From contig SIAN01000023.1 of the NCBI GenBank assembly GCA_009691715.1, positions 3,059 to 67,058 of the forward strand: 64,000 bases of DNA. The letters are read 5' to 3'. This document shows positions 1 through 33,656 of the stretch, one piece after another. The first letter of the stretch is position 1; each line of letters starts with the position of its first letter. The DNA is from Planctomycetota bacterium. GTDB lineage: Bacteria; Planctomycetota; B15-G4; SIAN01. A program made the position numbers and the translations under genes. The notes beneath the pieces are model-generated. The model worked only from the letters and a program-made list of their open reading frames with translations, made no database searches and had not been told where the DNA came from.

Positions 1-1366
<1,366 letters not shown>

Positions 1367-1572: not shown

Positions 1573-1648
1573 TGAATGGTGCATCGAGATTCGAATCGCG
1601 ATCGTGGCGCGGACACCGCATCTCCCGTCGGGCTAATTGCAGTGCGTC

Positions 1649-1724: not shown

Positions 1725-1845
1725 CGTCAGGTGGAACTGATCTTTGACAATCCAGTGGCATAAGTATCAAAACCAAAACTCCTTCTATTAGTTTCGTGAG
1801 TCAATTTGAAACACTCGAGCGACTAAACGACAATTAGAAAAGTGT

Positions 1846-4846
<3,001 letters not shown>

Positions 4847-4946
4847 GCTTTTCTTCTACTCCGTGCTGCGGAGTAGATCCGAGAATCGTTCATCGATTCT
4901 GTCGATCCTTGTGCCGCTGGATTTTGTTTGGCAATTCTGACTAAAT

Positions 4947-5057
4947 GCCCGGTGACCATAGCTGGCTGGATACACCCGTTCCCTTCTCGAACACGGAAGT
5001 TAAGCGGTCAGCGCCGATGATATTGGGTCACTCCGAGAAAGTAGGTTGTTGCCGGGC
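4947..5057 (+). rRNA. rrf: 5S rRNA
   Basis: 111 nt. Helix I gcccgg.../...gccgggc, conserved ccgaac-like ctcgaacacggaagttaag and gcgccgatg blocks, followed by a T7 run. Confidence 0.93.
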
Positions 5058-18164: not shown

Positions 18165-19907
18165 ATGGGCGCGCGCGGATGCGGGATTGATGAAGGCAGC
18201 GCGACCGTCAAGGTCGTTGAGGTCGAGCTGAAGGACGGTGCGCTGGTCCCGGTCGGGGCGTTGGCGCTGCCGGCGGTCGAGACCGGCCTCGACTCGGCGG
18301 CGCTGCAGAGCGCGATGAAGCAGAGCGGCATGAAGTCGCGCCAAGCGGTCCTGGGTCTCACCGGCAAGGACCTGGTGATCAAGTACCAGCAGGTCCCGCC
18401 GGTCGCAGACTTCCAGCTGAAGAAGATCGTCGCGTTCGAGCTCGACGAGATCCGCAAGCAGTCGGGCGACAAACTCGCCGCTGACTTCAACGTGATGCCG
18501 TCGCGTGCCGACCTCACCAGCGACGACATCGTGCTGATGGCGTTGTCGCGCGAGCAGCGCATCGAGGATCGCTCGGCCGCGCTGGCTCGGGCGGGCGTCA
18601 CGACCCGCCACTTCACGCCCAACGCCATCGCGCTCTACCACGCGTTCCGTGCCTTCGGGCCGGCGACCAGCGGCGACGTGTTGGTCGTTTCGATCGGAAA
18701 GCAGTCGTCCGACTTCGCGGTGATCCGCGACGGCGATCTGCTCTACGCCCGCAGCGTCGGCACCGGCGGCGACGTGCTAACTGACGCCATCGCGGCCGAG
18801 TTCGGCGTCAGCAAGGCGAAGGCGGAGAGCCTGAAGCGCGAACTTGGTGACCTGCGGCCGCGCGACAAGCGGGCCGGCCTGTCGCAGCAGGCGGAGAAGG
18901 TGAGTTACGCGCTCGAGGGCGCCGCCGGCCGGCTGTTCAGCATGGTGCAGTCGACGCTGCAGTTGGCCAAGGGCCAGATGCAGCTGAACCAGCTCGAGAT
19001 CAGCAAAGCCTGGATCACCGGCGGTAGTGCGGTGATGAAGGGGCTCGACGAATACCTTTCGGGCAACCTCGGCGTGCCGGTGCAGCGGTTCGATCCGCTG
19101 GCGGAGGCAGGAGTCGCGGTCGAAGGCGCCGGCACGCTCGACCTTGCGGTCGCGGCCGGACTCGCGGTCATGGCGGCCGACGGCGAATCGTGGTCGGTCG
19201 AGCTCCTCACCGCCGCAGAGAAGACTCGGCGCGATTGGACCAAGAAGCACGTCTTCACTGTCGCCGCGCTGGTGGCGGTGCTGGCCTACCTGGGCGTCTA
19301 CGCGTGGCAATGCCAGTCGCGCCACGACTTGGCGTTTCGACAGGCGAGCAGGGTCACCCTTGAGTGGAAGAAACGACAAGCCAACAGCACGTCGGTCGAG
19401 CGGCTCCGCGGCGAGCGCGGCGACCTCGCGGCGAAGGTCGACCTGCTGGAGAAGCGCAAGGCGGCCGGCGACGGACTGGTGCGCGCGCTCGGGATGTTGT
19501 CGACCCAACTGCCGGAGGATCTCTGGGTGACCGAGCTCGAGCTTGAGATGCTCGAGTCGAAGGCGGCGGCGAAAGACAAGGTGGCGAAGAAGCCGATGAT
19601 CGTCGTCGACGGCGCCGGCAAGTCGCGCGGCACGCGGTCGATCGACGACAGCTACCTCGCCTTCGTCGACACGGTGCGCGCCCTCGACGCGAAGATCGAT
19701 TGGAAGCCGGCGGACATCATCGAGACCCAGACGGTCAAGGGTGGCCAGGTCGAATATCGGCTGAACCTCACCTGGCTCACCGAGCCGGCGGCCAAAGTCG
19801 TGGACGACGCGGCGGCGGACGACACGGCAGGGCCGTCGAAGAGCCCGCCGAAGAATCCATCGAAGAGTTCCACGAACAATGCGGCCAAGCCGTCGGGAGG
19901 CAACTGA
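18165..19907 (+). CDS. PilM-like actin-fold domain fused to a PilN-like TM/periplasmic domain (GspL-like architecture)
   Basis: N-terminus CGIDEGSATVKVVEVELKDG, as in PilM GxDxGSxxxKxV. TM at VFTVAALVAVLAYLGVYAW, then a coiled coil and LPEDLWVTELEL (PilN-like). Starts 1 nt after the FHA gene stop. Confidence 0.75.
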   Translation: MGARGCGIDEGSATVKVVEVELKDGALVPVGALALPAVETGLDSAALQSAMKQSGMKSRQAVLGLTGKDLVIKYQQVPPVADFQLKKIVAFELDEIRKQSGDKLAADFNVMPSRADLTSDDIVLMALSREQRIEDRSAALARAGVTTRHFTPNAIALYHAFRAFGPATSGDVLVVSIGKQSSDFAVIRDGDLLYARSVGTGGDVLTDAIAAEFGVSKAKAESLKRELGDLRPRDKRAGLSQQAEKVSYALEGAAGRLFSMVQSTLQLAKGQMQLNQLEISKAWITGGSAVMKGLDEYLSGNLGVPVQRFDPLAEAGVAVEGAGTLDLAVAAGLAVMAADGESWSVELLTAAEKTRRDWTKKHVFTVAALVAVLAYLGVYAWQCQSRHDLAFRQASRVTLEWKKRQANSTSVERLRGERGDLAAKVDLLEKRKAAGDGLVRALGMLSTQLPEDLWVTELELEMLESKAAAKDKVAKKPMIVVDGAGKSRGTRSIDDSYLAFVDTVRALDAKIDWKPADIIETQTVKGGQVEYRLNLTWLTEPAAKVVDDAAADDTAGPSKSPPKNPSKSSTNNAAKPSGGN

Positions 19908-20686
19908 TGGACCTCGCGGATATCTGGCAGCAGCACAAGCGATTCATCCTGCTGGTGGCGAGCGCGTTGCTCCTGCTGCTGGTGGGGCGCGGCGTGATCC
20001 ACTCGAAGTGGGACTACGAAACGGTGGTCGTGTCGTCGGCCCGGACCACGGGCGTGATGAGCAAGGCGGAGAAGGTGCCCGACGAGGTGGTGCGCGCGCT
20101 GCAGGAAGAGGTGACGGCGCTGCGCTCCCGTTATGCGGCGCTGGCGACGACGATGCGCCACAAGCCGCAGGAGGCGTTCATCGTCCCGGCGGGAGAGAGC
20201 AACCCGCGCTCGTACTTCTTCCGGCGTCACAGCGAGACGAAGTCGGCGTTGATCGAGGCGGCGGAACGGCAGGACATCCGCGTGCCCGAGGCGCTCGGCT
20301 TGAAAGACATGGCGCCGACCGAGCCCGACGAGATCCGTCGGCAGTTGGTGGCGCTCGATGTCGTGCAACAGGTCGTGATCGAGTCGATCGGCGCGGGCGT
20401 GCGGCGCATCACGACGATCCAGATCGAGGACGCCAGCAAGGGCCGCAGCAAGGCGTCGAGCTTCCTCGCCGACCTGCGCGTGCGCTTCACCATCGTCGGC
20501 GGTGAGAAGTCGATTCGCACGCTGGTGATCGGGTTGGTCGATGGCGCGGCGCGCGGACAGGCCGCGTTCCTTGCGATCGATCAGGCGCGGCTGAAGCCGG
20601 TCAAGGGCGAGCTCGGGATGCTGGAGCTCGACCTCACGGCGGCGGCGCTGCAGATCGACAAGAGCGCGGACGAGGAGACGCCGTGA
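19907..20686 (+). CDS. PilO/GspM-like bitopic assembly protein
   Basis: MDLADIWQQHKRFILLVASALLLLLVG TM, coiled coil, C-terminal alpha/beta region. ATG shares 1 nt with the upstream TGA. Confidence 0.6.
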   Translation: MDLADIWQQHKRFILLVASALLLLLVGRGVIHSKWDYETVVVSSARTTGVMSKAEKVPDEVVRALQEEVTALRSRYAALATTMRHKPQEAFIVPAGESNPRSYFFRRHSETKSALIEAAERQDIRVPEALGLKDMAPTEPDEIRRQLVALDVVQQVVIESIGAGVRRITTIQIEDASKGRSKASSFLADLRVRFTIVGGEKSIRTLVIGLVDGAARGQAAFLAIDQARLKPVKGELGMLELDLTAAALQIDKSADEETP

Positions 20687-23469
20687 TGGCGCGCCCAGGC
20701 AAGGAACAGACCTTCTTCTTCGCCAGCATCGGCCTCACCGGCCTGCTGGCAACGTTGCTGCTGACAGAAGAGTTCAAGACGCTGCCGATCCCCGCCGGCA
20801 AGGCGTTCAACCGCGACCTGCTCGACGCGCGCGGCGTGCCGACGGCCCCGCGCGGCGCCTTGCACGACCGCAGTTTCGCGCGCGACGGGCGCGAGGCATT
20901 CCGCGAGCCGCGCGACTGGCTGCCGCTGCCGGCGGTCAACCTCGAACGGCCGCCGCTGCGCGACCCGGCCTATGTGCCGCCGCCGACGCTGCCCGCGGCG
21001 AGCCTGTCGCGTCTAGGGATCTATCGGCAGGCGACGAACGTGACGGCGCACGAGTTCGCGGGCGAAGGCGCCAACGCCGCCGGCGATGGCGCGGCGGAGG
21101 AGGAAGCGCGTGCGCCGGCATCGGCGGCGGCTGCCAGTGCGGCGCCGGGCGCGAATAGCAGCGCCGCGAATGGCGCCGCGAGCGGAAGCAGGTCGCCAAG
21201 TGCTTCCGGCGCGGGGCAGGGTGGCGCGCCGCTGCTATCGCGCGACGAAGAGTTCCAGAAGAAGTACGACTGGCTTGACCTCGCGCTCGACGCGAAGCCG
21301 TGGTACGTCGTCATCAAGAACGCCGACAAGTTCGGGCTGCTCGACGGCACCGCGACGGAGATCGAGTTCACCCGGATCAACCCGGTGACGGGCCGCGTGA
21401 TGATCGGCGGCAAGCTGCCGTTCGAACGGCTGAAGCCCGGCGGGATTCACTTCGCCGAGACGCCGTTCAATCGCGCCGAACTGAAGCTGCGCGAGGTGCG
21501 TGAATCGCAGTGGGGTCCGACGACGTTGCCGCACCTGCTCGACGCGGCGGCGGCGGCGATCGCGCTCGGGATCGGCGATCCAGCGTGCTACCGCTCCGCC
21601 ATCGCCAGGCTCGAGAAGTGGCTCACGATCGATCTGAAGCAGGCGCGCACGTACGAACTGCTCGCCGACGCCAAGGCGGCGTTGCTCGATTTCGAGGGCG
21701 AGTTGCTGATGCTGCGGCGGGCCGAGGCGGCCGGAGTCGAAGGCGCCGGACTCGCAGTGCGGCACGCCCGTTGGCTGGCGCGAGTGGGGGCGCGCGCCGG
21801 AGCGCTCGCGCGGTTGGCGGCGACCGTGCAACGCTTCCCGACCGATCGCGACGCGCATCTGGCCTACGGCCGCGCGCTGCTCGACGAAGGCTCGCCGGCG
21901 AGCGTCGACCTCGCGGTGCAGCGGTTCGCGCAGGCGGAGCAGGCGTCGAACTCGATGGAGCAGCGCATCGAGGTGATCGCGGAGACGGTCAGCGCGCTGC
22001 TCGAACGCGGCGATGCGGCGCGCGCTCTCGACGAAAGCAAACGGATCCTCAAGATCGATCCGCAGTCGGTCGTGGGCCTGCGATTGCAGGGGGCGACCGA
22101 GTTCGCGCTCGGCCTCCTGACCGAGGCCGAAGCCGACTTCGGGCGGATGGCGGGCGCCGCTCGCAACGTCGGCGAAGAGGGCGAGGCACTGCTGTCGCTC
22201 GGTGTCGTGCGCACGCGGATCGGCACGTTCGACTTGGCGCGAGACGATCTTGCGCGGGCGCCGCAACGCGATCCGCTCTTGGCCGGCGCGGCGGCGGTGG
22301 CGGAGGCGGAGCTGCTTGCCGTCACTGGGCACCTTGATCAGGCCGTGACGCGCGCTCGCGATGCTTTCGCCCGCGCGCCCGACGACGCCTTCGTCGGTTA
22401 TTTCCTCGGCCGTCTGCTCCGACAGTCAGGCGATCTGGAGGGCGCCCGCGCCGAGCTGCGTCGGGCGCTCGACCTCGGCGCCGGCTTCCCCGACCTGTTC
22501 AACGAGCTCGGCTTCGTCGCGTTGTCGCAAGGTGTCGCCGATGATGCGCGGCGCTACTTCATCGAGTCGCTGGCGCGCGAGGAGCGCGACGAAACGCGGC
22601 TGCTGCTGGCGCATGCGCACCTGCTGGCCGGCGACTTGGCGCGCGCGCGGTCGCTGTTCGAGCAGCTCCAGTCGAAGAAGACCACCAGCGAGTCGCTGCT
22701 CGGCCAGGCGTTCTGCGCCTACCGTTCCGGCGACAGCGCCACCGCGCAGCAAGGTTGGCTGCAGGTGCGCGACGAGCTGAAGGGCGCGCCGACGGAAGAC
22801 GTCGCCTACGCGACCAAGTGGTTGGCGGCGGTACAGGACCTCGAGAGCAAGCAGGTCTGGGACGACGCGCTGCAGTGGAGCGAGGTCGGCAATGGCTGGG
22901 ATGCGACCACGAGCTTCGGGCCCGAGCTCAAGTCGACACCGCCGGGCAACGTGCGCATCTCTGGGACGCAGAAAGCGCCCGCCGACGTCGGCAACTGGAC
23001 CATTTTGAAGCGCGAGGTCGAGCTGTCGCTCTACCACGAGTTCGAGGTCGAGTGCTCGTTCGCGCCGGAGCACAAGGGGCGGATGGGGATGGGGCTGGTG
23101 CACTACCAGCCGGGAGCCGCCGGTCAGCCGCCGCGCGTCCGCGCCGCGTTGACGATCGCGCTCGATGTCGACGGCACGGTCTGGCTGCAGCGCTGCGAGC
23201 ACCCGGGCGACGAGGAGTTCAAGAAGATCGGCACGCACACCGTGAAGCCGGGCGACACGGCACGAATCACGCTGCGGCGGAGCGAGCGCGGGAACGAGAA
23301 GTTCCAGTTCCTGCTCGACGGCGCGCCGATCACCGAGGTGGTCGAGATGGCGCCGTGGAAGGGGCGCACGCGGCAGGGCGTCGCGGCGCTTTTCTTCGGC
23401 TCGGCACCAGCGGGCAAGACGTGCGACTTGAAGCTCGAACGGGCGCGGCGCATCGAGTTCTTGCCGTGA
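20683..23469 (+). CDS. TM-anchored TPR-repeat protein with a C-terminal lectin-like beta-sandwich domain
   Basis: N-terminal TM FFFASIGLTGLLATLLLT. Central degenerate TPR/helical repeats (about aa 330-700). The C-terminal about 200 aa are beta-rich (ILKREVELSLYHEFEVECSF...TIALDVDGTVWLQ...FQFLLDGAPI). Start GTG 20683 or ATG 20686 overlaps the upstream stop. Confidence 0.8.
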   Translation: MMARPGKEQTFFFASIGLTGLLATLLLTEEFKTLPIPAGKAFNRDLLDARGVPTAPRGALHDRSFARDGREAFREPRDWLPLPAVNLERPPLRDPAYVPPPTLPAASLSRLGIYRQATNVTAHEFAGEGANAAGDGAAEEEARAPASAAAASAAPGANSSAANGAASGSRSPSASGAGQGGAPLLSRDEEFQKKYDWLDLALDAKPWYVVIKNADKFGLLDGTATEIEFTRINPVTGRVMIGGKLPFERLKPGGIHFAETPFNRAELKLREVRESQWGPTTLPHLLDAAAAAIALGIGDPACYRSAIARLEKWLTIDLKQARTYELLADAKAALLDFEGELLMLRRAEAAGVEGAGLAVRHARWLARVGARAGALARLAATVQRFPTDRDAHLAYGRALLDEGSPASVDLAVQRFAQAEQASNSMEQRIEVIAETVSALLERGDAARALDESKRILKIDPQSVVGLRLQGATEFALGLLTEAEADFGRMAGAARNVGEEGEALLSLGVVRTRIGTFDLARDDLARAPQRDPLLAGAAAVAEAELLAVTGHLDQAVTRARDAFARAPDDAFVGYFLGRLLRQSGDLEGARAELRRALDLGAGFPDLFNELGFVALSQGVADDARRYFIESLAREERDETRLLLAHAHLLAGDLARARSLFEQLQSKKTTSESLLGQAFCAYRSGDSATAQQGWLQVRDELKGAPTEDVAYATKWLAAVQDLESKQVWDDALQWSEVGNGWDATTSFGPELKSTPPGNVRISGTQKAPADVGNWTILKREVELSLYHEFEVECSFAPEHKGRMGMGLVHYQPGAAGQPPRVRAALTIALDVDGTVWLQRCEHPGDEEFKKIGTHTVKPGDTARITLRRSERGNEKFQFLLDGAPITEVVEMAPWKGRTRQGVAALFFGSAPAGKTCDLKLERARRIEFLP

Positions 23470-23489: not shown

Positions 23490-24137
23490 ATGAACTCCAA
23501 ACAGCTGAATGCCGGGGCGGTGCGCGACCGCCGAGCCGGCTTCACGCTGGTCGAGATCCTGGCCGTCCTCGCGATCCTGTCGCTGCTGATGGCCCTGTCG
23601 GTCGTCGGGTTCCAGAAGTTCAAGGAGCGGGGTTACGTCACCAAGACCCACTCGACGATGGCGGAGCTTCGAATGAAGATCACCAACTACGAGTCGAAGT
23701 TCGGAGCTCCGCCGCCCGACACGCTGGCGGCGCTGAAGGTGCGCGCCGACAACGACCTGAACGAAGGCGCCGAGGCGCTGTTCGCCGCGCTCCATCTGAA
23801 GGGCTTCCCGGAAGGCGACAACGTCGAGGAGGAGTCGCTCGGCAACAGCGACGAGGACTCGACGGCGACGCCCTATCACCGCGACGCGGGTGTGAGTCAG
23901 TTGCTCGAAGTGATGGATGGTTGGGGCAATCCGATTGCCTACTTCGCGCCGTCCGGTTACGGCAAGGAACAGCGCTACCTCATGAGCGAGCCGGCGGATC
24001 CCAACGACCCCGAGCAGCGCGTCTCCGCGCAGAAGTCGACCAAGACCGGTGCCTTCGCCAACGCCGACACCTTCCAACTGATCTCCGCGGGAACCGACGG
24101 GCTATTCGGGACCGATGACGATGAGACGAACTTCTGA
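23490..24137 (+). CDS. GspG/PulG-like major pseudopilin
   Basis: Class III signal RRAG|FTLVEILAVLAILSLLMAL (Glu+5). C-terminal hallmarks DGWGNPIAYF and LISAGTDGLFGTDDDETNF. Confidence 0.88.
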   Translation: MNSKQLNAGAVRDRRAGFTLVEILAVLAILSLLMALSVVGFQKFKERGYVTKTHSTMAELRMKITNYESKFGAPPPDTLAALKVRADNDLNEGAEALFAALHLKGFPEGDNVEEESLGNSDEDSTATPYHRDAGVSQLLEVMDGWGNPIAYFAPSGYGKEQRYLMSEPADPNDPEQRVSAQKSTKTGAFANADTFQLISAGTDGLFGTDDDETNF

Positions 24138-25215
24138 GCGGATTGCGGCCGGATGCAGCGCTCGACCACGCGCGACGCGCGCCGGCCGAGGCGGGTTCAC
24201 GTTGATCGAGATGCTGGTCGTGATGTCGATCCTGGGCGTGCTGATGGGTCTGTCAGTCGCAGCGTTCCAGCGCAGCGTCCCGCGCCGTGATCTTGCGCGT
24301 CGCGCCGTCCTCGACGCGTTGCGTCAGGCGCGACTGTTCGCCATCGCCGAGAACGCGCCCGCAACCGTCCGGCTCGATCCCGGCAACGAGGTCGATTCGA
24401 GCAGCGCGAACGCGTGGCCGACGGTCGGTGCGCTCGGCCGCAAGACGGTCGGCTGCTGGCACCTCGAAGGGACCGATCTTGCGGGCTGGCCGAACGATCT
24501 GCGTGCCGCCGGAGCGGAGGAGGAGGCGCGCGGCGCCTTCGGCCACGCGCTGCTCCTCAGCGCCGACGAACCGTCGTGGCTCGAAGCACCGATCGTGCCG
24601 GCGTTCGAGTCGATGAACGGCTTCGCCCTCGAATGCTTCCTCAAGTGCGACCGCCTGCGCAGCCAGCTCCTGTTCAGCAAGGGCCGCGCGATCGCGCTGC
24701 GGCAGGAGAGCGGTGGGGCGCTGACGTTGCAGGTGCAAGTCGAAGGGCGCGACGACGACGGCGAGCCCAAGGCGACCTACCAGAGCGTCAGCTCGCCGAC
24801 CGGCGTGGTGCCGGCCGGACGCTGGTTCAAGCTGGCGGCCACGTTCGACGGGTTGCAGTTGCGCCTCGCGGTCGACGACGCGGTCGTCGCCGAGTTGGCG
24901 CTGCAGCAGCGGATGGCGTTCCTCACCGATGCCGGGGTCGCGCTGCTCATCGGCGCCTATGACGAAGCGGCCGGGATCTCCGTCGACGAGTTCAAGTGGG
25001 GCATTTTCACCGGGGACACGCACGAGCTGCGCGACATGGAGCTCGGGCCGGTGGAGTCAGGCGCCCGATTCGTGCGCTTCGGTCCCGACGGCGCGCTCGA
25101 TCCCCGTTTCCATCAGGCGCCGGTCAACCTGCTGTTGCTCACGCCGACAAGCGATCCCGAAAAGAAGCCGATCGAGACGTGGGTGCGCGTGGGGCTGCTC
25201 GGAGACGTGCAATGA
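24115..25215 (+). CDS. Prepilin-type protein (GspH-like N-terminus) fused to a LamG/concanavalin-like domain
   Basis: GRGG|FTLIEMLVVMSILGVLMGL. LamG-like segment FALECFLKCDRLRSQLLFSKG...LTLQVQVEG...GRWFKLAATFDGLQLRLAVDD. Overlaps the upstream gene by 23 nt and the downstream gene by ATGA. Confidence 0.82.
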   Translation: MTMRRTSERIAAGCSARPRATRAGRGGFTLIEMLVVMSILGVLMGLSVAAFQRSVPRRDLARRAVLDALRQARLFAIAENAPATVRLDPGNEVDSSSANAWPTVGALGRKTVGCWHLEGTDLAGWPNDLRAAGAEEEARGAFGHALLLSADEPSWLEAPIVPAFESMNGFALECFLKCDRLRSQLLFSKGRAIALRQESGGALTLQVQVEGRDDDGEPKATYQSVSSPTGVVPAGRWFKLAATFDGLQLRLAVDDAVVAELALQQRMAFLTDAGVALLIGAYDEAAGISVDEFKWGIFTGDTHELRDMELGPVESGARFVRFGPDGALDPRFHQAPVNLLLLTPTSDPEKKPIETWVRVGLLGDVQ

Positions 25216-28200
25216 AGACCCGTGGCGTCGCCTTGCCGCTGGTGCTGGCGGTGCTGGTCTGTCTGGTCGCGGTAGCGATTCCGTTCGCGTTGTCGATGCA
25301 GCACGAGCAGGGTGGCGTCGCCTACCGGACGCACGAAGACGAGGCGCGGCGCGCGGCGATGGCGGTGCGCGACATGGCGCTGGCGCATCTCGGTGCCACA
25401 GCGCCCGACCGTGACGACACGCCCTGGGTCGATTCACTGGCCGAGCTCGACGTCGATGTCGCGGCACGCGCCGATGACCTCGCAATCCTGAATTTGGGGC
25501 CGCGCGGACGGCTGCTGTCGGCGAGCGTCGAGGATCAGTCGGGGCGAGTCGACATCAACTGCTCGAACCTCTTCCTCACCGCGCGCCTGCTCGGCATGGC
25601 GACGACGCTGTCGTCGAAACTGACTCCCGACGACAAGCAGTTCCGGCTGTCGGATGGCGACTTCCTCGCCGACTCCGGCTTCCTCTGGATCGACGGCGAG
25701 GTCACCTACTACCAGCGCCGGGAAGGCAGCACGATCCACGACTTCCAGCGGCCGGCGATCGTGCCGGGCGTCTGGGAACCGCCGCTCCTCCCGACGGAGC
25801 CGAGGGAGTTCGCGGCCGGCACACAGGTGATCGACTTCCGGGCCTGGATGGTGGCGGCCTGGCCGTGGAAGGCGCAGGCCGGCATCGAGTCGCGCTTCGA
25901 GTCGATCACCCATCCGCTCGCGATCGCCAACTTCGGCCGCGGCGCGCTCGGGCCGGCGGAACGTGCGCGGCTCGAGCAGTTCGCCACGATTTGGTCCGCG
26001 GATGGCGGGCGCGATCGGTTCGGCAACGCGCAGCGGATCCTCACCTCGATCATCGCCGGCGAGACCCAGCAGATTCGCATCGAGCAGGGGCAGTTCGTCG
26101 GCGCTGGCATGCTGGCGCGGATCACGACGTTCGGCGGTCGCGAGGTCGAGTACGGCTTCGTGCTGCGCAGCCAGGAGCGGGGCGAGTTCGCGGAACTGAC
26201 ATTCGAGATGGCGCCGCGCATCAGCGTGGATGCCGGGCAGGCGAAGGTCGAGTTCCTGCTGCCGCGTCCGGTGAACGTCAACAGTTGCACGCGTGAGACG
26301 CTGGCCCTGCTGCTCGAAGGGCTGCAGATGCGCGGCGGCGGCAAGTCGGTCAATCGCGACACGGCGGAGCTGGTCGCGGCGCGGATCGTGCAGGCGCGTC
26401 CGCTCGATGGGATGCGGAGCCTGATCGTCCTGCTTGATGAAATGGTGGAGCGGGAGAAGGTCCTCGATGGCGCGCACCGCGTCGCGATCCTCAGGAACGC
26501 CGAACACTCCGGCTGCTACGACCTCGAATTCGGCACCGCGCCGTTTTGCTACGCCACCGACGGTGTCGTCGACGTGCGCGCCGCCGCCAGCTTGAACTGG
26601 GAGAACGGTCGCGAGCAGGCGCGTGCGCTAGTGCGCGAAGTCGTCGCGACTGCCGCTGCCGGAGTCGGCGCGCGGATCGCGAAGACGCAGCGTGATTTCG
26701 ACGAGCCGTGGCGCATCAGCCGGCTCGCGCGCGGGTGGACCACGTTTCCGGAGAACCTCAACTTTTGGTCCGGTGGCATCGGGTCGGCCGATCCGCCGAG
26801 CCGGCTGATCGCGATGGCGTCGCCGCGGCTCCGGTTTCCGATCGAGGAGATGAGGGACTCCGCCGTGCGACTCGCGCCGGCGTGGTACGACCTCGAGGCG
26901 ATGCCGGCCGACCGCACCTGGCACTTCGACGGCCGGCGCGACGACTTCGAGTCGGACGATCCCGACGGCTGGCGCCTCTCCGACGGGCCGATCGCGCTGA
27001 ACACCAACGGCAACAGTCCCGGCGTCGCGATGACGCAGAACCTCTCCGGCATCGAACGGCCGAAGCCCTTCGGCATCTCGATGTGGTGGAACCCGGGCAC
27101 CAACCTGACGATCGAGCAGACGCTGTTCGACTGGCAGTGCAACTCCGCGGTGGCGGTCTCCGGGCTTTCCGATCGCGTGCGACTGCGAATGGTTGCCGCC
27201 AAGCTCGAACTCGAGGTGGACGATGCGTTCTTGCGCGCGTCGGAGGACGATCTCTACACCGCGAAGATCGTCTACGACTTCACCGATGGCTTGCCGCTCG
27301 AAGGCGACACCTGGTACCACGTGACGGCGTTCTGCCGCGGCAATCGCGCCGGCCAGATGAGCCTCTGGGTCGACGGCAAGCCGCGCGGCAAGTACAGCCA
27401 CTACGCGCGCACCACCGGTGCCTTCACCGCCAGCGCGCAGGGGGCGAACCGGATCGCGATCGACCCGAAGCGCCTCGCCAACGGCACGGCAAAGTTCCCG
27501 CCGCGCGGCGCGGTGCGGATCAACAACGACGTCTTCGAGTACTCGTCGGTGAACGCGTCGAACTTCACCGTGCAATACGACCAGGACAACCGCTTCGGCG
27601 GCATCCGGCCGGCGCCCCCGCTGCAACTGCAGTCGGCCGCGACCAGCGCCGGGACGCAGGCGACCTCATCGACCAATCATCCGGCGACCAGCGGTGTCGA
27701 ACTCTACGGGTACGCCGCGCGACTCGACTCCGACCTGCCGGCCGGCGAGGTCACGCTCGACAGCAACGGCCTCGGCGAGTTCGGCGTGGCGATGGTGTCG
27801 CCGGCGATGGGGCAGGCGAACATCGAGGTGGCAGTCACGAACCCGGGACCGCCTCCGCTCGGCGGCAACAACCCGAGCATCACGCTCGGGCGCGGTTTCG
27901 ATTCCGACGCGACCACGATCCTGGTGTCGGCGCTCGATGGCGGGAAACTGCCCAGCAGCAAGCCGCCGCTCAGCAGGAACGGCGGGTACGCCGCGCTGGT
28001 CGGCTACTACTTCGGCACGCTCACGCCGAACGACCCGACCAGCCGCGATGAGGGCGGCACGCTCGAGTCGACCCAATCGACGACGGGCAGTTGGATCCAG
28101 GGCGTCGAGATCATTCACTACGGGGCGTTCGACGGCGCGCAGTTGACCAAGGTGGTGCGCGGCCAGTCGCTCAAGTCGGCGGAGATCAAGTCGACCGATC

Positions 28201-30311
28201 TGGCCGAGTACGACGACCAAGCGGTCCCGTCGGGCGGCGGGATCAACACGATCTACCACTTCACCGACAAGCACGCGTGGGTCGTGGTCCCCGACAAGCA
28301 GACCTTCGCCGCCTACACGGCGCCGTTCTTCACCATCCTGGTGGTGCCGCTCAGCGTGATCGTGTCCGGCAGCCCGAAGCTCGCGCTGTTGGTGCCGGAG
28401 CAGCAGAATCCCGGCTTCGATCGCTGCGAGATGGCGCAGATCGGCTCGCCGACTTCCCACGGCGTGTTCGATCCGACCGAGTGGATCCGCTACGACGCGA
28501 TCGTGCAGGATCAGAACGGGCGGTGGAACCTGCTGCGTGCCGACCCGAAGCGCCTCGGCGCGGCCGAGTCGTTCGCGTCGTCGACGCGGCGACCCTCCGG
28601 CCAATCCAACGCCTTCGACGGCAACGGCGCCGCCGACTACCTCCTCGCCATCGCCTCCAACCCGTTGAGCTACGCGATGAGCAGCGCCGCCTACGAGGAC
28701 TTCGTCGAGGCGCTGAATCAGGAGAGCCTCTACGGCGGCGATCCGGACAACAACAGTGGCGGGCATCGACTCGCCTTCCGCGGCGTGCTCGACACCGGCT
28801 ACAAGGACAAGGAGCACGAAGGCGGCGAGTCGATCTACCCGGTCTGGCGCACCTCGCGCACCGGACCCAAGCCGGGCCGCTACGACGAGATCACCATCGT
28901 CGGCAGCAACCGCGAGCCGCCCGAGCGCCACTTCCTCAACTACGCCTGGTGCAACGACAGCGCCGAGGACTGGAGCGGTTCGTGCCACTGCGCGCTGTTG
29001 GCGGAAGGGGCGGGCACGAAGTTCGTCCGCACCCAGAATCTCGGCGTGCAGGCGACCAGCGCCACCAACGTCGCGGCCAACATCGCCTGGTACGGTGACT
29101 CGCGGAACTTCGCCCGCATCCTCAAGTTCCCGTCGGGCGAACTGCCGAGCCTCGCCGATCCGGGCAGTCAGATCACCATCGGCGGCAGCCTTGGCGGGAC
29201 CGGTGGAGCGGGCGCCGCGGGTGGCGCCGGTGAAGGTGCCAAGATCGACGAAGTGCGCGTGTTCGCGACCGACGATCCGCAGCCGATCATGTCGCACGGC
29301 CTGCACGTGCTGAACCGTGAATTGACCGCGACCGAGCAGGACCGCTTCGAGATCGGCGACGATCTCCTACGCTTCCCGCACCAGACCTCCGGCAGCATCG
29401 GCGCGACGCCGAACCTGCACGGCGACGCCTCGGTCTGGCAGATCGGCGACGAGTTCATCGTCTGCGGCGAACGGCAGATGGGACAACCAGTGGTGCAGGA
29501 AATCGCGCCGGATGGTCGGATCAAGTTCTCCGGCACCGACGACTTCTACGTCGCCGGCTACCACGCGCAGGGCGAGATGCTGCAGGTGCTGCCGTGGCTG
29601 GTGATGACCCGACTTGCGGCAGGCATGTCGAGCGGCGACTCGGAGATCGCGCTCAACGACCCGGCGGGGTTTCCGCCGAAGGGCTGCGTGATGATCGATC
29701 AGGAGGTACTCGCCTACACCTCGCGGCAGTTCGGCGGCGGTGGCGGCAGCGGGCAGGCGCTCTATGTGCCGACGTTCCTCGCCGACCCCGACGGCCGCTC
29801 AAGCCAGTCGCGCGGGGAAGCGGCGTTCCGCGGCCGTTTCGGCACGCCAGTGATGACCCACTCGGCCGACGCCGTCGTTTTCTTCTGGAACTACCGCTAC
29901 GCCGACGGCTACCACGAGCGCTGCGACATCCCCGAGATGGCGACGCTGGAGATGCCGTTCGCCGCGCGCCGCGGCCTGTTCCACGCGCTGTCGTGGATCG
30001 AGCAGAAGAGCGACCCGTTGGTGAAGCTGATCGCCACCGTGCGCGTGCAGGGACAAGGCGGATTCACCGGCGATCCCGAAGACGATCCCGACCTGTTCGT
30101 GTTCGACCAGCCGGGGACGCGCGAGCGGCCGAACCGGATCGACCGCCAAGGCGACCTGCTGCGCGTCCGCTTCAACGTCGACTACCTCGACGGCGCGCTC
30201 GATTCGGTCGACTTCACCAAGAACTCGTGGAAGCGCGCGCCGCTGATCGAAATCGTGAGCGTCGAGCAACTCGCCGGCCGCGTGGTCGAACTGCACGAGG
30301 AGTCGCGCTGA
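25212..30311 (+). CDS. Giant (1699 aa) GspK-like minor pseudopilin with a large C-terminal extension containing a LamG-like domain
   Basis: N-terminus MKTRGVALPLVLAVLVCLVAVAI (GspK-type RGxAL, no Glu+5). VEDQSGRVDINCSNL (GspK DExGkiNiN motif). PVNVNSCTRETLALLLEGL...TAELVAARIVQARPLDGMRSL (HhH/SAM-like). LamG-like FGISMWWNPG...TWYHVTAFCRGNRAGQMSLWVDGKPRG. Real start is ATG 25212 (ATGA overlap), not ORF-track 24996. Confidence 0.85.
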   Translation: MKTRGVALPLVLAVLVCLVAVAIPFALSMQHEQGGVAYRTHEDEARRAAMAVRDMALAHLGATAPDRDDTPWVDSLAELDVDVAARADDLAILNLGPRGRLLSASVEDQSGRVDINCSNLFLTARLLGMATTLSSKLTPDDKQFRLSDGDFLADSGFLWIDGEVTYYQRREGSTIHDFQRPAIVPGVWEPPLLPTEPREFAAGTQVIDFRAWMVAAWPWKAQAGIESRFESITHPLAIANFGRGALGPAERARLEQFATIWSADGGRDRFGNAQRILTSIIAGETQQIRIEQGQFVGAGMLARITTFGGREVEYGFVLRSQERGEFAELTFEMAPRISVDAGQAKVEFLLPRPVNVNSCTRETLALLLEGLQMRGGGKSVNRDTAELVAARIVQARPLDGMRSLIVLLDEMVEREKVLDGAHRVAILRNAEHSGCYDLEFGTAPFCYATDGVVDVRAAASLNWENGREQARALVREVVATAAAGVGARIAKTQRDFDEPWRISRLARGWTTFPENLNFWSGGIGSADPPSRLIAMASPRLRFPIEEMRDSAVRLAPAWYDLEAMPADRTWHFDGRRDDFESDDPDGWRLSDGPIALNTNGNSPGVAMTQNLSGIERPKPFGISMWWNPGTNLTIEQTLFDWQCNSAVAVSGLSDRVRLRMVAAKLELEVDDAFLRASEDDLYTAKIVYDFTDGLPLEGDTWYHVTAFCRGNRAGQMSLWVDGKPRGKYSHYARTTGAFTASAQGANRIAIDPKRLANGTAKFPPRGAVRINNDVFEYSSVNASNFTVQYDQDNRFGGIRPAPPLQLQSAATSAGTQATSSTNHPATSGVELYGYAARLDSDLPAGEVTLDSNGLGEFGVAMVSPAMGQANIEVAVTNPGPPPLGGNNPSITLGRGFDSDATTILVSALDGGKLPSSKPPLSRNGGYAALVGYYFGTLTPNDPTSRDEGGTLESTQSTTGSWIQGVEIIHYGAFDGAQLTKVVRGQSLKSAEIKSTDLAEYDDQAVPSGGGINTIYHFTDKHAWVVVPDKQTFAAYTAPFFTILVVPLSVIVSGSPKLALLVPEQQNPGFDRCEMAQIGSPTSHGVFDPTEWIRYDAIVQDQNGRWNLLRADPKRLGAAESFASSTRRPSGQSNAFDGNGAADYLLAIASNPLSYAMSSAAYEDFVEALNQESLYGGDPDNNSGGHRLAFRGVLDTGYKDKEHEGGESIYPVWRTSRTGPKPGRYDEITIVGSNREPPERHFLNYAWCNDSAEDWSGSCHCALLAEGAGTKFVRTQNLGVQATSATNVAANIAWYGDSRNFARILKFPSGELPSLADPGSQITIGGSLGGTGGAGAAGGAGEGAKIDEVRVFATDDPQPIMSHGLHVLNRELTATEQDRFEIGDDLLRFPHQTSGSIGATPNLHGDASVWQIGDEFIVCGERQMGQPVVQEIAPDGRIKFSGTDDFYVAGYHAQGEMLQVLPWLVMTRLAAGMSSGDSEIALNDPAGFPPKGCVMIDQEVLAYTSRQFGGGGGSGQALYVPTFLADPDGRSSQSRGEAAFRGRFGTPVMTHSADAVVFFWNYRYADGYHERCDIPEMATLEMPFAARRGLFHALSWIEQKSDPLVKLIATVRVQGQGGFTGDPEDDPDLFVFDQPGTRERPNRIDRQGDLLRVRFNVDYLDGALDSVDFTKNSWKRAPLIEIVSVEQLAGRVVELHEESR

Positions 30312-31522
30312 TGGCACCGCGCTGCGCCACTCGCCGCTCTGCGGCGAATCGATCGTCGCGTGCCGGCATGACACTCGTCGAGCTGATGGCCGCGATGACG
30401 ATCTTCCTCGGCCTTGCGGGAATGGTGCTGCAGGTGATGGGCGGCGGGCTCGACCTGTGGGTGACCGGCGAGCGCACGCGCGACGAGGGCGAGCAGGCGA
30501 GCGCGTTGCTCGACCGCATCTCCGCCGAACTGCGCCACGCCGTCGCCACCGACAGCGGTGAAGGCGAGCCGCGGGTGAAGTTCCTCTGCGACACGATCAC
30601 GCAGGACACCGATGGCGACGGGACGCACGACTTCCGGGCGCAACGACTGCTGTTCGTGCGCCGCCTGAGCGAAGAGCGCGTGCATCCGCCGTTGGTCGCG
30701 GCCGGCACGCACGAGCAGGGGGCGCAGCCGTTCGTGGGCGCGATCGAGTCGGCGGACGCCCGCTTCCAGGCGACTGAAGGACTGGTCGAGCAGGCGTTGC
30801 TCGCGCAACCTGACATGCGCGTCGGCTACGAAGGGCGGATCGTGCTGTGGCGGGCGCTGCGCAGCCCGATCGGTGGGCCGGAGAGTTTCTTCGCCAACGC
30901 GTTGCGCGATGGTGGAGGCCTCGATCGCGCGCCGCTCGAACCGCTGGCCGAAAACGTGCTGCTGTTCGCACTGGGGTTCCTCTCCGACAACGTGAACGAA
31001 AGCGTTGAAGATCCGGCCGCCCTGCCGGGCGACGCGCGCGGCCCGCAGTTCGTCTGGGATTCGACGCGCGGGATCCTGCCGCCGGGCGATGGCTTCACCG
31101 GTTTCCGTCAGGCGCGCAGCAACGCCTCGTTGAAGGACGCGGACGACGACGTCTTCCCGACGGCGGTGCGCATCACCGTCATCGTGGCGCCGCCTCCTGG
31201 CGAAGCGCCGCAGGCCGAGATCCAAAACGACATCCCGGCCTCGGCCGGCACGGTGCGCGTTGAGCTCCGGAATGGCCGCCACCTGAAGAAGCTCGGCGAC
31301 ATTGCGCGGTTGCTGAAGCTCGGCCACGAATGGGTCGAAGTCGCGGAGACCGACGGCGCCTCGCTGCTGATCACGCAGCGCGGACTGCTCGGCACGGCGC
31401 CCGCCATCCACCTCGCCGGCACCAAAGTGTTGGTCGGCCAGCGCTTCGAGCGGATCGTGTCGCTGCCCTGCGGGCGCGGCGACCTGATCTCGCGCGAGAT
31501 CGACCGCGGAGTGCAGCGATGA
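30311..31522 (+). CDS. GspJ-like minor pseudopilin (403 aa)
   Basis: SSRAG|MTLVELMAAMTIFLGLAGMVL class III signal with Glu+5. ATG shares 1 nt with the upstream TGA. Confidence 0.75.
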   Translation: MAPRCATRRSAANRSSRAGMTLVELMAAMTIFLGLAGMVLQVMGGGLDLWVTGERTRDEGEQASALLDRISAELRHAVATDSGEGEPRVKFLCDTITQDTDGDGTHDFRAQRLLFVRRLSEERVHPPLVAAGTHEQGAQPFVGAIESADARFQATEGLVEQALLAQPDMRVGYEGRIVLWRALRSPIGGPESFFANALRDGGGLDRAPLEPLAENVLLFALGFLSDNVNESVEDPAALPGDARGPQFVWDSTRGILPPGDGFTGFRQARSNASLKDADDDVFPTAVRITVIVAPPPGEAPQAEIQNDIPASAGTVRVELRNGRHLKKLGDIARLLKLGHEWVEVAETDGASLLITQRGLLGTAPAIHLAGTKVLVGQRFERIVSLPCGRGDLISREIDRGVQR

Positions 31523-32007
31523 ACGCGGCACGCCATGTGGCGCACGTTTCGGCGCACGTTTTGGAGTGCGGTGCTCCTCGCCGTCGCGACGCCGGCTTCA
31601 CGCTGCTCGAGGTGATGGCGGCGCTGTCGATCTTCCTGGTCGGCATCGTCAGCGTGCTGGCACTGCTGTCGACCGGGACCCGGCTGCATCAGGATTCGCG
31701 CGCGATGGCGATTGCGGCCGATGCGGCCGAGGAGATCCTGCTGCGCGCGACCAGCGAGCTCTCGGAGCTGGCCTCGGCGGAGGGCGCCGCGTTGCCGGAA
31801 CTCGCGACCGCGCAGCCGGTGCCGGGTCGCCCGGGACTGAGCTACCAATGGCGCGTCATCACCGCGCCAGAAGGCGGGCTGTACCGCCTGCTGGTCGAGG
31901 TGAGCTGGCAGCAGGGCGGCAAGCGCCGCACGCAGCAGCTCGAACGGGTTCTGCCGCGGCTGCGCTCGCCGAGCGCCGACGCGGCGAAGCTGCTGGCGGA
32001 ACGGTGA
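31519..32007 (+). CDS. GspI-like minor pseudopilin (162 aa)
   Basis: RRDAG|FTLLEVMAALSIFLVGIVSVLAL. Small size and C-terminal beta region (YRLLVEVSWQQGG) typical of GspI. ATGA overlap with the upstream gene. Confidence 0.75.
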   Translation: MNAARHVAHVSAHVLECGAPRRRDAGFTLLEVMAALSIFLVGIVSVLALLSTGTRLHQDSRAMAIAADAAEEILLRATSELSELASAEGAALPELATAQPVPGRPGLSYQWRVITAPEGGLYRLLVEVSWQQGGKRRTQQLERVLPRLRSPSADAAKLLAER

Positions 32008-32117: not shown

Positions 32118-33656
32118 ATGAAGATGGACATCGGCTGCAGGTTTGCGTTTGCGTTGCTGCTGTCGGTCGCGCCCCGCGCGGCGGCCGGCACAAACCCTGA
32201 CGGAGCGCCCGAGGTGATCCGACTCAAGGTCGGTACCGAGGTCGTGATCGAGGTGCTCGAGTTCGACGAGGCCAAGGGCGTGCGCGCCCGTCGCGTCGAC
32301 GACGGCGCACTGCTCGATCTCACCTTCGACCAGATGGTGGCCGAGGACGCGCAGCGCATTCGCGCCGGGAAGGGCTACTTGCCCGACGAGCCCGAGCCGG
32401 TGCTGGTCGACGCGATGCGGGTGAAGCTGATGGGTGGCGAGGAGTTCACTGGGATCATCGTCGAGCAGGGGAACGAGACCCTCACGCTGCGGCGCGGCAC
32501 GCAGACCTGGCCGTTGAAGCGGGCCGGCGTCCGCTCAATCACGCCGGTGCAGGTCGACGCGCTCGAGGTCTACGACGGAGAGGAGCTCTACGCGCAAGAG
32601 CTTGCCAAGCGCAATCCGCGGTTGGCGCTCGACCACTACAACCTCGCGCTCTTCTGCGAGAGCCTGCAGTTGTGGGTCCGCGCCAAGGAACACCTAGCGC
32701 AGGTCACGACGATCGAGCCGGGCTTCAAGGCCACCATCATCGACGGCAAGATCAAGCGTGCGACGCTGCGACTCGAGTCGGGCGAGGACTCGCTGCTGCT
32801 CGGCAAGGCGCAGCGCCTGGCGCAGCGCGACAATTACGACGCCGCGCTCAAGGCCGTCGACGACTTCCTGGAGAAGAAGCCCGGCTCGGCGCTGCGGGCC
32901 GAGTTCGAAAAGCAGCGGCGCCTGATCGCGGTGAGCCGCGAGAAGTGGCTGAAGCAGGAGGTCATCGTCCACTTCTTCAAATACGCCGAACGCGTCGCGC
33001 GCACGGTCGCCGGAGAGAAGGAGATCGGCGTCAAGCAGGCGCGCCAGCGCATGGAGCTCGAGGGGACGACCCTCATCATCGAGGCGACGTCGAAGTGGCT
33101 CAAAGTGCCGTCGGGCGAAGTCCAGGCGCAGTGGGAGGATCCGAAGCGCTTGACCGCGTCGCCGCACTACGCGAGCTACGGCGCCGGGACGTTCACGATC
33201 GGTTCGGTCGAGCAGATCCAGAAGGGGCTGGTGGCGCAGGCCGAGACCGCGAAGAAGGCGGATCCTGCCGCCGGCAACGCGGGCGCCGAGCAGGGCGACT
33301 ACCTCGAGAAGATCAAGAAGATCCTCGAGCAGAAGAAGAAGGAGGCCGACGAAGCCGCCAAGAACAAAGGCAAGCCGAAGGCTCCGCAGAAGCGCGGCCC
33401 GGAGATCGCCGACGTTCCGCCAACCGACGACGAGTGGTGGGCGACGGCCAGCAGCGACGAACGGGTCCAATACCTGATGGCGTGGTGGGCTGACCACGAC
33501 CCGCACGTGCAGATCATGAAGGTCGGCGCAACCGCCTGCCCGCAGTGCGCCGGCGAAGGGCTGATCCGTTTCTTCGATCGCAACGGCGACAACAAGTTCG
33601 TGCCGTGCTCGCGCTGCAAGAGTCTCGGCATCGACCGCACGCTGCGATTCCACTGA
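32118..33656 (+). CDS. Secreted protein of unknown function with a Lys-rich linker and a C-terminal CxxCxGxG / CxxC zinc-ribbon-like motif
   Basis: Signal peptide MKMDIGCRFAFALLLSVAPRAAAG. GGAGG RBS upstream. C-terminus ACPQCAGEGLIRFFDRNGDNKFVPCSRCKSLG. Confidence 0.7.
   Translation: MKMDIGCRFAFALLLSVAPRAAAGTNPDGAPEVIRLKVGTEVVIEVLEFDEAKGVRARRVDDGALLDLTFDQMVAEDAQRIRAGKGYLPDEPEPVLVDAMRVKLMGGEEFTGIIVEQGNETLTLRRGTQTWPLKRAGVRSITPVQVDALEVYDGEELYAQELAKRNPRLALDHYNLALFCESLQLWVRAKEHLAQVTTIEPGFKATIIDGKIKRATLRLESGEDSLLLGKAQRLAQRDNYDAALKAVDDFLEKKPGSALRAEFEKQRRLIAVSREKWLKQEVIVHFFKYAERVARTVAGEKEIGVKQARQRMELEGTTLIIEATSKWLKVPSGEVQAQWEDPKRLTASPHYASYGAGTFTIGSVEQIQKGLVAQAETAKKADPAAGNAGAEQGDYLEKIKKILEQKKKEADEAAKNKGKPKAPQKRGPEIADVPPTDDEWWATASSDERVQYLMAWWADHDPHVQIMKVGATACPQCAGEGLIRFFDRNGDNKFVPCSRCKSLGIDRTLRFH

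Follow-up and report, generated by a model that had tools for sequence, protein, structure and literature searches.

A giant GspK-like modular minor (pseudo)pilin in a putative type IV filament locus of uncultured Planctomycetota

Among the pseudopilins of type II secretion systems (T2SS), the absence of the glutamate at position 5 (Glu5) is the hallmark of GspK, and in the complex formed by GspI, GspJ and GspK this subunit is the topmost one, with nothing stacked above it. Planctomycetota are known for an unusual envelope biology and for the use of polysaccharides, and the molecular picture of their fibres and secretion routes is a poor one. The subject of this report is a gene located at positions 25212-30311 (+ strand) of a stretch of 64,000 nucleotides from a Planctomycetota bacterium (contig SIAN01000023.1, positions 3,059 to 67,058), which was analysed as a whole and is referred to as the window; coordinates given below are those of the window, and features lie on the + strand unless stated otherwise. 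Its product of 1699 amino acids (aa), called the giant in the following, resembles GspK in its N-terminal part and is predicted to carry a large, mostly beta body behind it. With a probability that we put at about 0.6, it is the subunit in the GspK/PilK position of a type IV filament system specific to an uncultured lineage of Planctomycetota, that is, a giant modular tip pilin with an adhesin body. A preliminary description, made from the sequence alone, had presented the product as a GspK-like minor pseudopilin of about five times the usual size. This figure holds, as the GspK of Escherichia coli K-12 has 327 aa and the aligned GspK homologues have 286-393 aa.

The references for GspK were the Pfam families PF03934 and PF21687, the NCBIfam model NF037980 and the GspI-GspJ-GspK tip complex of enterotoxigenic E. 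coli. The likeness of the giant to GspK consists of a series of features that follow one another in the same order in both proteins: a glycine at position -1, the lack of Glu5, the helix alpha1, a first strand with the pattern D-x-x-G-x-x-N-h-N, an h-N-V-N-(T/S) motif with a helix-hairpin-helix (HhH), and the closing strands. The giant is also encoded, like GspK, among G-, H-, I- and J-like genes. Apart from its length, it differs from GspK by two barrel insertions and by a C-terminal body of about 1200 aa. The gene order differs as well, being G-H-K-J-I and not the canonical G-H-I-J-K, and the locus contains a PilM-like gene and no GspL.

A combination of comparable total mass is found in type IVa pili, where a K-type initiator (PilK/PilX, or MshP) works with an adhesin body of about 1100-1200 residues (PilC/PilY1, or MshQ, the partner of MshP, of about 1200 residues) (PMC13533445). 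In contrast to these pairs, which are held together (at least) by a donated C-terminal strand, the giant is one polypeptide in which the body is attached covalently. Further, neither Pfam nor Foldseek detected in it the beta-propeller of PilY1 (IPR008707), and it has a pilin-like N-terminus of its own. A relationship by descent to PilY1 was rejected, because there was no Pfam match and no PilY1/PilC structure among the Foldseek matches of aa 500-1699 in the PDB. In PilK/PilX with PilY1, in MshP with MshQ and in CpaL of Tad pili, a single-chain protein of about 600 aa, the extreme C-terminal strand completes the sheet of the K-type pilin (PMC13533445). CpaL/TadG share with the giant the arrangement of a pilin-like N-terminal domain and a large non-pilin region in one chain (PMC13533445), but they are much shorter, and a TadG homologue was rejected since the giant shows neither TadG nor vWA signatures. 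The conserved extreme C-terminus of the giant might return to the pilin sheet in the manner of CpaL.

Pilins with grafted modules have also been described. PilB and PilC of S. sanguinis carry a vWA module and a concanavalin-A-like lectin, respectively, the latter of the ConA/LamG type that is also present in the giant (PMC8179133). Insertions inside the pilin fold, as seen in the giant, are found in ComZ of Thermus as well as in GspK (PMC6561018). With a GspK-like module at aa 1-480 joined to a LamG domain and further beta domains, the giant has the composition by which modular pilins are recognised. Contrary to the surveyed examples, of which the most extreme, picked for domain count, has 860 aa (PMC8179133), it is far larger and its grafted part is a compact body of several domains without family assignment. 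That survey would have missed the giant because the protein lacks the IPR012902/N_methyl signature used there, and domain-based surveys of modular pilins would overlook the entire family, which has no N_methyl signature and no Pfam assignment beyond LamG. The giant extends known themes (modular pilins, the inserted domain of GspK, ComZ, CpaL and PilY1) and founds no new category; for a specialist in type IV filaments it is notable rather than astonishing.

If the proposed reading is true, the giant is possibly the largest pilin-type subunit yet described, and a cap in the K position can carry an adhesin-sized body covalently and not through a separate protein of the PilY1 or MshQ type. A tip of this size poses the question of how it passes or avoids the secretin. 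The protein provides, moreover, a testable handle on the filaments of Planctomycetota.

Within the Planctomycetes-Verrucomicrobia-Chlamydiae superphylum, a comparable arrangement is that of the Verru_Chthon cassettes of Verrucomicrobia, in which a large protein A is encoded together with the pseudopilin-like proteins B, C and D; TIGR02600 is presumably the model of protein A. The likeness of the giant locus to this cassette (TIGR02596-TIGR02600) consists of a large protein among prepilin-type proteins, and the H-like neighbour of the giant gives a weak match to cassette protein D on its generic pilin N-terminus (36 bits, cutoff 70). Membership of the giant in the protein A family was rejected, since none of 22 members of the giant family matched any cassette model at E<=0.1. 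Literature searches found nothing on these cassettes.

The gene and its GspK-like module

The gene is a single open frame that translates without interruption into 1699 aa followed by a stop. Its GC content by codon position (0.66/0.50/0.88) matches that of the other genes in the window, which has a GC content of 68%. The start overlaps the upstream stop (25215) as ATGA, the stop overlaps the downstream start (30311) as TGATG, and the junction at 31519-31522 between the J-like and I-like genes is likewise ATGA. This tight packing of the H-like, giant, J-like and I-like genes, with overlapping stop and start codons, suggests that their translation is coupled. The single frame, the codon use with its third-position GC (GC3) of 0.88 and the two overlaps of the giant confirm what the preliminary description had reported, and all of the motifs quoted there are present in the product: MKTRGVALPLVLAVLV at aa 1-16, VEDQSGRVDINCSN at aa 106-119, PVNVNSCTRETLALL at aa 353-367, IVQARPLDGMRSL at aa 392-404, FGISMWWNPG at aa 620-629, TWYHVTAFCRGNRAGQMSLWVDGKPRG at aa 700-726, GGSLGGTGGAGAAGGAGEG at aa 1324-1342 and QFGGGGGSGQA at aa 1506-1516. 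A longer reading frame beginning with GTG at 24996 was rejected, because the homologues begin 5-25 residues before the conserved R-G-(V/I)-A-L.

The sequence databases hold an identical protein, 'hypothetical protein EXS13_10545' (Planctomycetes bacterium), and 21 more homologues with 26-72% identity. All 22 have 1671-1760 aa and align over their full length, with conserved residues that run from M1 to the last residues of the alignment, and all are named 'hypothetical protein'. A scan of one genome per species gave 65 loci, every one of them in a metagenome-assembled genome (MAG) of Planctomycetota, many labelled Phycisphaerales, and none in a cultured isolate. An exhaustive search with a profile of the N-terminal 600 aa recovered 1488 cluster representatives with E<=1e-3, of which 379 reached E<=1e-30. 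The best 150 of the 1488 representatives (three of them already among the homologues) were combined with the 22 homologues into a set of 169 family sequences, 128 of which are at least 1500 aa long; the shorter ones are assumed to be fragments from contig ends. Of the homologues examined, the one furthest removed (26% identity, on a contig of 5.29 Mb) lies in the same gene order over about 25 kb. The family is large and widespread, and the gene is a real and conserved one of uncultured Planctomycetota. No Pfam or NCBIfam family covers the giant, in which the Pfam assignment is limited to LamG, and literature searches found no paper on the family.

The homology to GspK was traced by profile-profile comparison. 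A profile of 33 canonical GspK sequences, started from E. coli K-12 gspK, was compared by hhalign with the N-terminal profile of the family. The first 120 aa, comprising alpha1 and the first strand, matched the N-terminus of GspK with a probability of 96.5-97.5% (E 9e-10 to 8e-12), and aa ~345-455, used alone, gave an independent match to GspK columns 223-277 with 90% (E 1.6e-6); the two segments keep the order that they have in GspK. In the part between them, which is interrupted by a barrel insertion, aa 205-265 alone fell on the correct intermediate position (GspK columns 188-220) with an E value of 0.013 that is not significant. As a control, the N-terminal query was run against profiles of the G-, I- and J-like pseudopilins encoded beside the giant, where the probability did not exceed 4%. 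This finding indicates that the match of aa 1-120 is not merely that of a generic pilin helix. The 33-sequence profile was needed for this result, the comparison with E. coli GspK as a single sequence giving a probability of 37%. Sub-threshold matches to the curated models occur across the family, to NF037980 in 15 of the 22 homologues (best E 1.4e-6), to Pfam T2SSK in four and to HHH_3 in two. Taken at the level of sequence, these results point to a remote but specific homology of the N-terminal module to GspK, outside the curated family.

An AlphaFold2 (AF2) model of aa 1-600, with a predicted local distance difference test score (pLDDT) of about 90 over aa 1-480, is in agreement with this assignment. 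The protein begins with a leader of the class III type, MKTRG/VALPL (the slash marks the presumed cleavage site), and a long alpha1 (aa 1-62, 25212-25397; predicted helix 7-62), which hhalign places on alpha1 of GspK. In 83 diverse members of the family, the leader has basic residues, then a glycine at the cleavage site and (V/I/F/L)-A-L behind it, and position +5 is hydrophobic or Thr and never Glu. The N_methyl signature (PF07963/IPR012902) was found neither in the giant nor in the 22 homologues, in line with the lack of Glu5 in a K-type subunit. The first beta strand (aa 100-119, 25509-25568; 100-108 in the model) carries the GspK-type motif S-V-E-D-Q-S-G-R-V-D-I-N, which is aligned to D-x-Q-x-x-F-N-L-N in GspK columns 103-123; D108 is invariant and G111 nearly invariant in the homologue alignment. 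It is followed by a first barrel, inserted in the region of the GspK-like alpha domain (aa 128-210, 25593-25841; strands 130-208), by a helical segment at the position of the first SAM-like subdomain of GspK (aa 209-257, 25836-25982; predicted helices over the same residues), and by a second beta-barrel insertion (aa 262-352, 25995-26267; strands 270-349), which hhalign matched neither to the other barrels nor to GspK and which is unrelated in sequence to the repeated module described below. VNVNS and the HhH/SAM-like subdomain come next (aa 353-431, 26268-26504; helices 361-431; aligned by hhalign to GspK columns 223-277), and the closing strands of the pilin-like fold (aa 438-479, 26523-26648; strands 438-440, 452-462 and 468-479) are aligned to the C-terminal strands of GspK. 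As modelled, aa 1-480 have the topology of GspK with two barrel insertions. Behind them lies a linker (aa 482-565, 26655-26906), disordered in this model (pLDDT <50) and partly ordered against the body in the model of the C-terminal part (pLDDT 59-88). The GspK-like region had initially been taken to comprise about 570 aa; its relationship to GspK is upheld by the profile comparisons at aa 1-120 and 345-455, but the module ends at about aa 480.

The C-terminal body

The C-terminal part was modelled by AF2 over aa 500-1699 from an alignment of 50 sequences. It is predicted to be a single compact body (mean pLDDT 85.4, predicted template modelling score (pTM) 0.84) that is almost wholly beta, with the exception of a helical patch at aa ~1112-1168. 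The parts of low confidence are an S/T/Q-rich loop (aa 796-819), two Gly-rich stretches and the last few residues. The Gly-rich stretches had previously been regarded as linkers. This is not borne out by the model, where they appear as short disordered loops within one compact body.

The one domain of a recognisable family is a beta sandwich of the LamG/concanavalin-A type at aa 567-759 (26910-27488). Laminin_G_3 (PF13385) covers aa 615-735 of the giant with 23.1 bits (cutoff 27.6), and 20 of the 22 homologues match it, with a best E of 5.5e-9. In a Foldseek search of the PDB, the region was matched to agrin (1pz8; root-mean-square deviation (rmsd) 3.4 A over 113 columns), laminin, the LG domain of neurexin and the sialic-acid-binding CBM40 6er3. 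The LamG-like stretch noticed in the preliminary description is thus real. Across the whole of aa 500-1699 this domain alone was recognised by the search, and TM-scores normalised to the query were at most 0.08. Further along the chain, aa 843-1394 (27738-29393) form a beta-rich body that contains the helical patch and a Gly-rich loop (aa 1324-1342); its pLDDT is mostly above 85, and it has no Pfam or NCBIfam match and no global Foldseek match. The C-terminal end of the body is a beta sandwich of long hairpins (aa 1575-1687, 29934-30272; strands at residues 1080-1188 of the model), within which the covarying pairs 1608-1654, 1654-1679 and 1604-1662 were found. When the C-terminal model was searched against BFVD, large phage fibre and structural proteins were retrieved with E values down to 3e-8. 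The TM-scores of 0.06-0.11 and rmsd values of 20-60 A reduce this to a likeness at the level of single domains.

A small barrel of about 65-80 aa recurs at least four times in the giant and is also present at the C-terminus of its J-like neighbour. Its signature is GFPxxG-x-h-I-D-x-E-h-x-Y ... R-G-x-x-G-T-x4-H-x2-G-x-V. Copy 1 is the first barrel inserted in the GspK-like module, which hhalign relates to copies 3 and 5 and to the J-like C-terminus at 93-97%. The other copies belong to the C-terminal body: copy 3 (aa 755-840, 27474-27731), which includes the S/T/Q-rich loop, is matched to copies 1, 4 and 5 at 91-97%; copy 4 (aa 1395-1475, 29394-29636) to copies 3 and 5 and the J-like C-terminus at 91-97%; and copy 5 (aa 1480-1565, 29649-29906), which has a Gly-rich loop and the pattern GFPxxG-x-hID-x-E-hh-x-Y ... 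FRGRFGT-x4-H-x2-x-V, to copies 1, 3 and 4 and the J-like C-terminus at 96-97%. Weaker pairs are copies 1 and 4 (51%) and copy 3 with the J-like copy (80%), and a further, weaker copy is found at aa ~960-1000. The occurrence of one barrel module in the GspK-like part, in the C-terminal body and in the J-like neighbour argues that these pieces evolved together as one tip assembly. The barrel of the J-like protein (~31250-31519) gave weak matches to a phage 'tip attachment protein J' (PDB 8rk3_o, E 1e-3) and to a tail protein (PHROG 1101, E 8e-5). No match was obtained when a profile of copy 5 was searched against PDB sequences or when copies 1, 4 and 5 were searched as single sequences against PHROGs.

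The protein ends in a conserved tail, ...RVVELHEESR (aa 1688-1699, 30273-30308), which in about 125 diverse members stands at a fixed distance past a W-K-x-x-P motif. In the model of the C-terminal part alone, the tail is not in a strand, is unpaired and has a low pLDDT. Covariation was analysed on 126 sequences by mutual information with average product correction (MI-APC). The best partner window of the last 11 residues was aa 463-483, the last pilin strand (z ~3, roughly antiparallel), in a measure that is dominated by the subfamily signal. Mean-field direct coupling analysis gave plausible contacts within modules, and by this method the couplings of the C-terminal domain to the pilin were no stronger than those of six control regions.

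The filament locus and the competing readings

The giant gene is flanked by four genes for pilin-like proteins, all of which, unlike the giant, have a canonical GFTL(I/V)E-type motif with Glu5. The GspG-like major (pseudo)pilin (23490-24137, 215 aa) starts with GFTLVEIL, has SAGTDGLFGTDDDETNF at its C-terminus and gives N_methyl and gspG N-terminal matches; a profile of this subunit matches the GspG structure 5wda (E 2.5e-12), and the C-terminal acidic loop of GspG is matched weakly. The next gene encodes an H-like minor pseudopilin of 366 aa (24115-25215; N_methyl and GspH/cassette-D N-terminal matches) with a LamG-like domain of its own. Laminin_G_3 scores 25.1 bits in this protein (cutoff 27.6), which is twice the usual size. 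Downstream of the giant lie the genes for a J-like minor pseudopilin of 403 aa (30311-31522), with a GMTLVEL motif and the barrel module at its C-terminus, where hhalign matches it to the barrels of the giant, and for a small I-like minor pseudopilin of 162 aa (31519-32007), with a GFTLLEV motif and sub-threshold GspI and PilV matches. The order G-H-giant-J-I, with the giant between the H-like and the J- and I-like genes and the I-like gene in its place, is that of the window and recurs in every one of the 26 loci scored, which are those of the 65 that passed a gene-order screen for four pseudopilins; the homologue of 26% identity on the 5.29-Mb contig shares it.

Compared with the sizes in E. 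coli K-12, the H-like subunit has 366 aa instead of ~170 aa and the J-like subunit 403 aa instead of ~195 aa, and the giant has 1699 aa where a K subunit usually has ~330 aa. All of the presumed tip subunits are enlarged relative to their usual sizes, and two of them, the H-like subunit and the giant, carry lectin-type sandwiches of the LamG-like kind. Upstream of the pilin genes, 18165-19907 encodes a protein of 580 aa in which a PilM-like actin-fold domain (Pfam PilM_2, E 1e-22; PDB PilM 3jc8, E 2.6e-15) is followed by a transmembrane segment and a periplasmic part, an organisation of the PilM-PilN/GspL type. The fusion of a PilM-like domain to a transmembrane helix and ~230 further residues recalls the architecture of GspL; no GspL-family model is among the Pfam matches of the protein, which scores as PilM. 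Judged from these genes, the locus is a module that supplies the filament subunits and the alignment complex of a type IV filament system. The (pseudo)pilins look like those of T2SS and the PilM-like component looks like that of type IVa pili, so the system is not clearly a canonical T2SS, the context to which the preliminary description had referred.

The favoured reading combines these elements as follows. The system would consist of the GspG-like major subunit, the H-, J- and I-like minor subunits and the PilM-like platform. A prepilin peptidase would cleave the giant after Gly5, and the long alpha1 would anchor it in the inner membrane. The GspK-like module of about 480 aa would then assemble with the I- and J-like subunits into an initiation complex that caps the growing filament, a step suggested by homology and gene order. 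The C-terminal ~1200 residues would form a rigid, mostly beta body at the most distal point of the filament, with the LamG/CBM-like head as a ligand-binding site, probably for carbohydrate, and the body would be extruded beyond the outer membrane. A subunit of the K type may tolerate a huge extra mass because nothing stacks above the topmost position (see also PMC8179133). The reading is supported by the ordered GspK matches, the leader without Glu5, the order G-H-giant-J-I, the folded models and the LamG/CBM40-like domain; the location at the tip, the incorporation into the filament and the binding of a ligand are extrapolated from sequence and models.

Several results weigh against this reading. 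The giant does not reach the thresholds of the curated GspK families: NF037980 scores 18 bits (cutoff 130) over aa 4-115 only, and Pfam T2SSK (PF03934) and T2SSK_1st (PF21687) do not match the giant itself. Structure prediction followed by Foldseek, a check proposed in the preliminary description and carried out here on the two halves of the protein, recognised the LamG domain, but among the best 50 of 595 PDB matches of the aa 1-600 model there was no solved GspK. The best of these matches were barrels of ~63-113 columns with E values of at least 4e-3 (N-terminal barrels of V-/A-ATPases and N-termini of phage tailspikes), and the two large insertions may mask the GspK fold. Likewise, when the PDB sequences were searched with hidden Markov models (HMMs) of the whole protein and of its N-terminal part, no chain of GspK, PilX or PilK was retrieved, the outcome being either polyomavirus VP1 at E 0.3 or nothing. 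The machine that would assemble and extrude the giant is not seen in the 64-kb window, from which genes for a secretin, an assembly ATPase, a platform protein and a prepilin peptidase are all missing. Finally, the channel of a secretin may be too narrow for a compact body of ~1200 aa, and the ligand-binding role of the LamG/CBM-like head is suggested by analogy.

Alternatively, the giant might hold the same GspK-like place as anchor and tip in a true T2SS pseudopilus confined to the periplasm, its body serving not as an adhesin but as a piston head, a platform for the docking of substrates or a plug of the secretin. This alternative, which we consider possible though unlikely, is in keeping with a major subunit that is GspG-like down to its C-terminal acidic loop, with an N-terminal module nearest to the GspK of T2SS, with the enlargement of every minor subunit and with a body that may not pass a secretin. 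It is difficult to reconcile with the platform protein, which is PilM-like and not GspL-like, and with the lack of GspC, GspD, GspE and GspF genes at the locus; further, LamG/CBM-type and phage-fibre-like beta domains are more typical of exposed binding proteins. The pilin-like N-terminus might instead be an uncleaved relic of GspK that anchors a stationary, unpolymerised protein in the periplasm or envelope, where it would bind carbohydrate or act as a scaffold. The curated thresholds that are not reached, the outcome of the Foldseek check, the disruption of the GspK-like module by two barrels and the setting of the locus among housekeeping genes would all agree with such an anchor. We regard it as very unlikely, however, because strict conservation is seen in the G(-1) cleavage motif and also in the GspK-type first strand and the closing strands, and the gene keeps its fixed place among the pilin genes, H-like on one side and J/I-like on the other, where the overlaps of stop and start codons suggest coupled translation; features of this kind are not expected to persist in a relic across sequences that are 25% identical.

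That the long frame could be a fusion of several genes created by an assembly error or a frameshift, or a spurious frame of high-GC DNA, had been raised in the preliminary description with respect to assembly error. High GC does yield many long spurious frames in the other reading frames, and no support was found for the artefact as such. The end-to-end alignment of 22 homologues of 1671-1760 aa, the recovery of the gene from 65 independent MAG loci and of 128 diverse relatives of at least 1500 aa, the GC3 of 0.88, the single compact fold predicted with confidence and the neighbourhood conserved around a homologue of 26% identity leave this explanation with practically no chance. The interpretation of the giant as a K-position tip subunit can also be taken further, to a fusion in cis of an initiator pilin and a tip adhesin, in which the conserved extreme C-terminus folds back to supply the last strand of the pilin sheet at the N-terminus and so closes a loop of ~1200 aa. 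With the H-like (LamG) and J-like (barrel) subunits, both enlarged as well, the giant would then build a head similar to a phage tail tip, with which planctomycetal surface fibres capture polysaccharides. This extension is likened to the proposal for CpaL at about three times its size, and we hold it to be speculative and quite unlikely.

Neighbouring genes and other features of the window

The run of genes on the + strand that leads to the pilins is headed by a protein of 784 aa (15809-18163) with two N-terminal FHA domains and a transmembrane segment (Pfam FHA, E 5e-39; Yop-YscD_cpl, E 9e-37), which also matches the FHA-type cytoplasmic domain of YscD of type III secretion systems. In a distant locus of the family (L001), its position is taken by a protein of 562 aa without Pfam matches. 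Two further conserved genes separate the PilM-like gene from the pilin genes and stand in the same order in L001. One of them encodes a bitopic protein of 259 aa without family (19907-20686) and the other a tetratricopeptide repeat (TPR) protein of 928 aa (20683-23469). The TPR protein shows a sub-threshold likeness to the pilus TPR lipoproteins of the PilW, PilF and Tgl type, and ~200 C-terminal residues beyond its TPR region have no family assignment. Directly downstream of the I-like gene, 32118-33656 (+) encodes a protein of 512 aa with a probable signal peptide and weak TPR matches. A double motif resembling C-x-x-C-x-G-x-G (CPQCAGEG ... CSRCKSLG), noticed by eye at its C-terminus, recalls the zinc fingers of DnaJ. 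L001 has a gene for 507 aa at this position, the likeness being one of length and place only.

The remaining genes of the window include an rRNA operon, tRNA synthetases, ATP synthase and similar functions. Upstream of the locus, on the - strand, 10625-12310 encodes a protein with FG-GAP/VCBS-type repeats and an ASPIC/UnbV domain, for which no obvious link to the filament was seen. The rRNA operon occupies 1-5057 (+) and consists of the 16S gene (1-1364, cut at the window start), tRNA-Ile (1496-1572), tRNA-Ala (1649-1724), 23S (1846-4846) and 5S (4948-5057); it accounts for the lower GC content (0.56-0.59) of the first 6 kb, and the partial 16S sequence could be used to place the organism phylogenetically. 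A gene for 6S/SsrS RNA is found at 60753-60939 (+), with a score of 66 bits that is above the Rfam gathering threshold.

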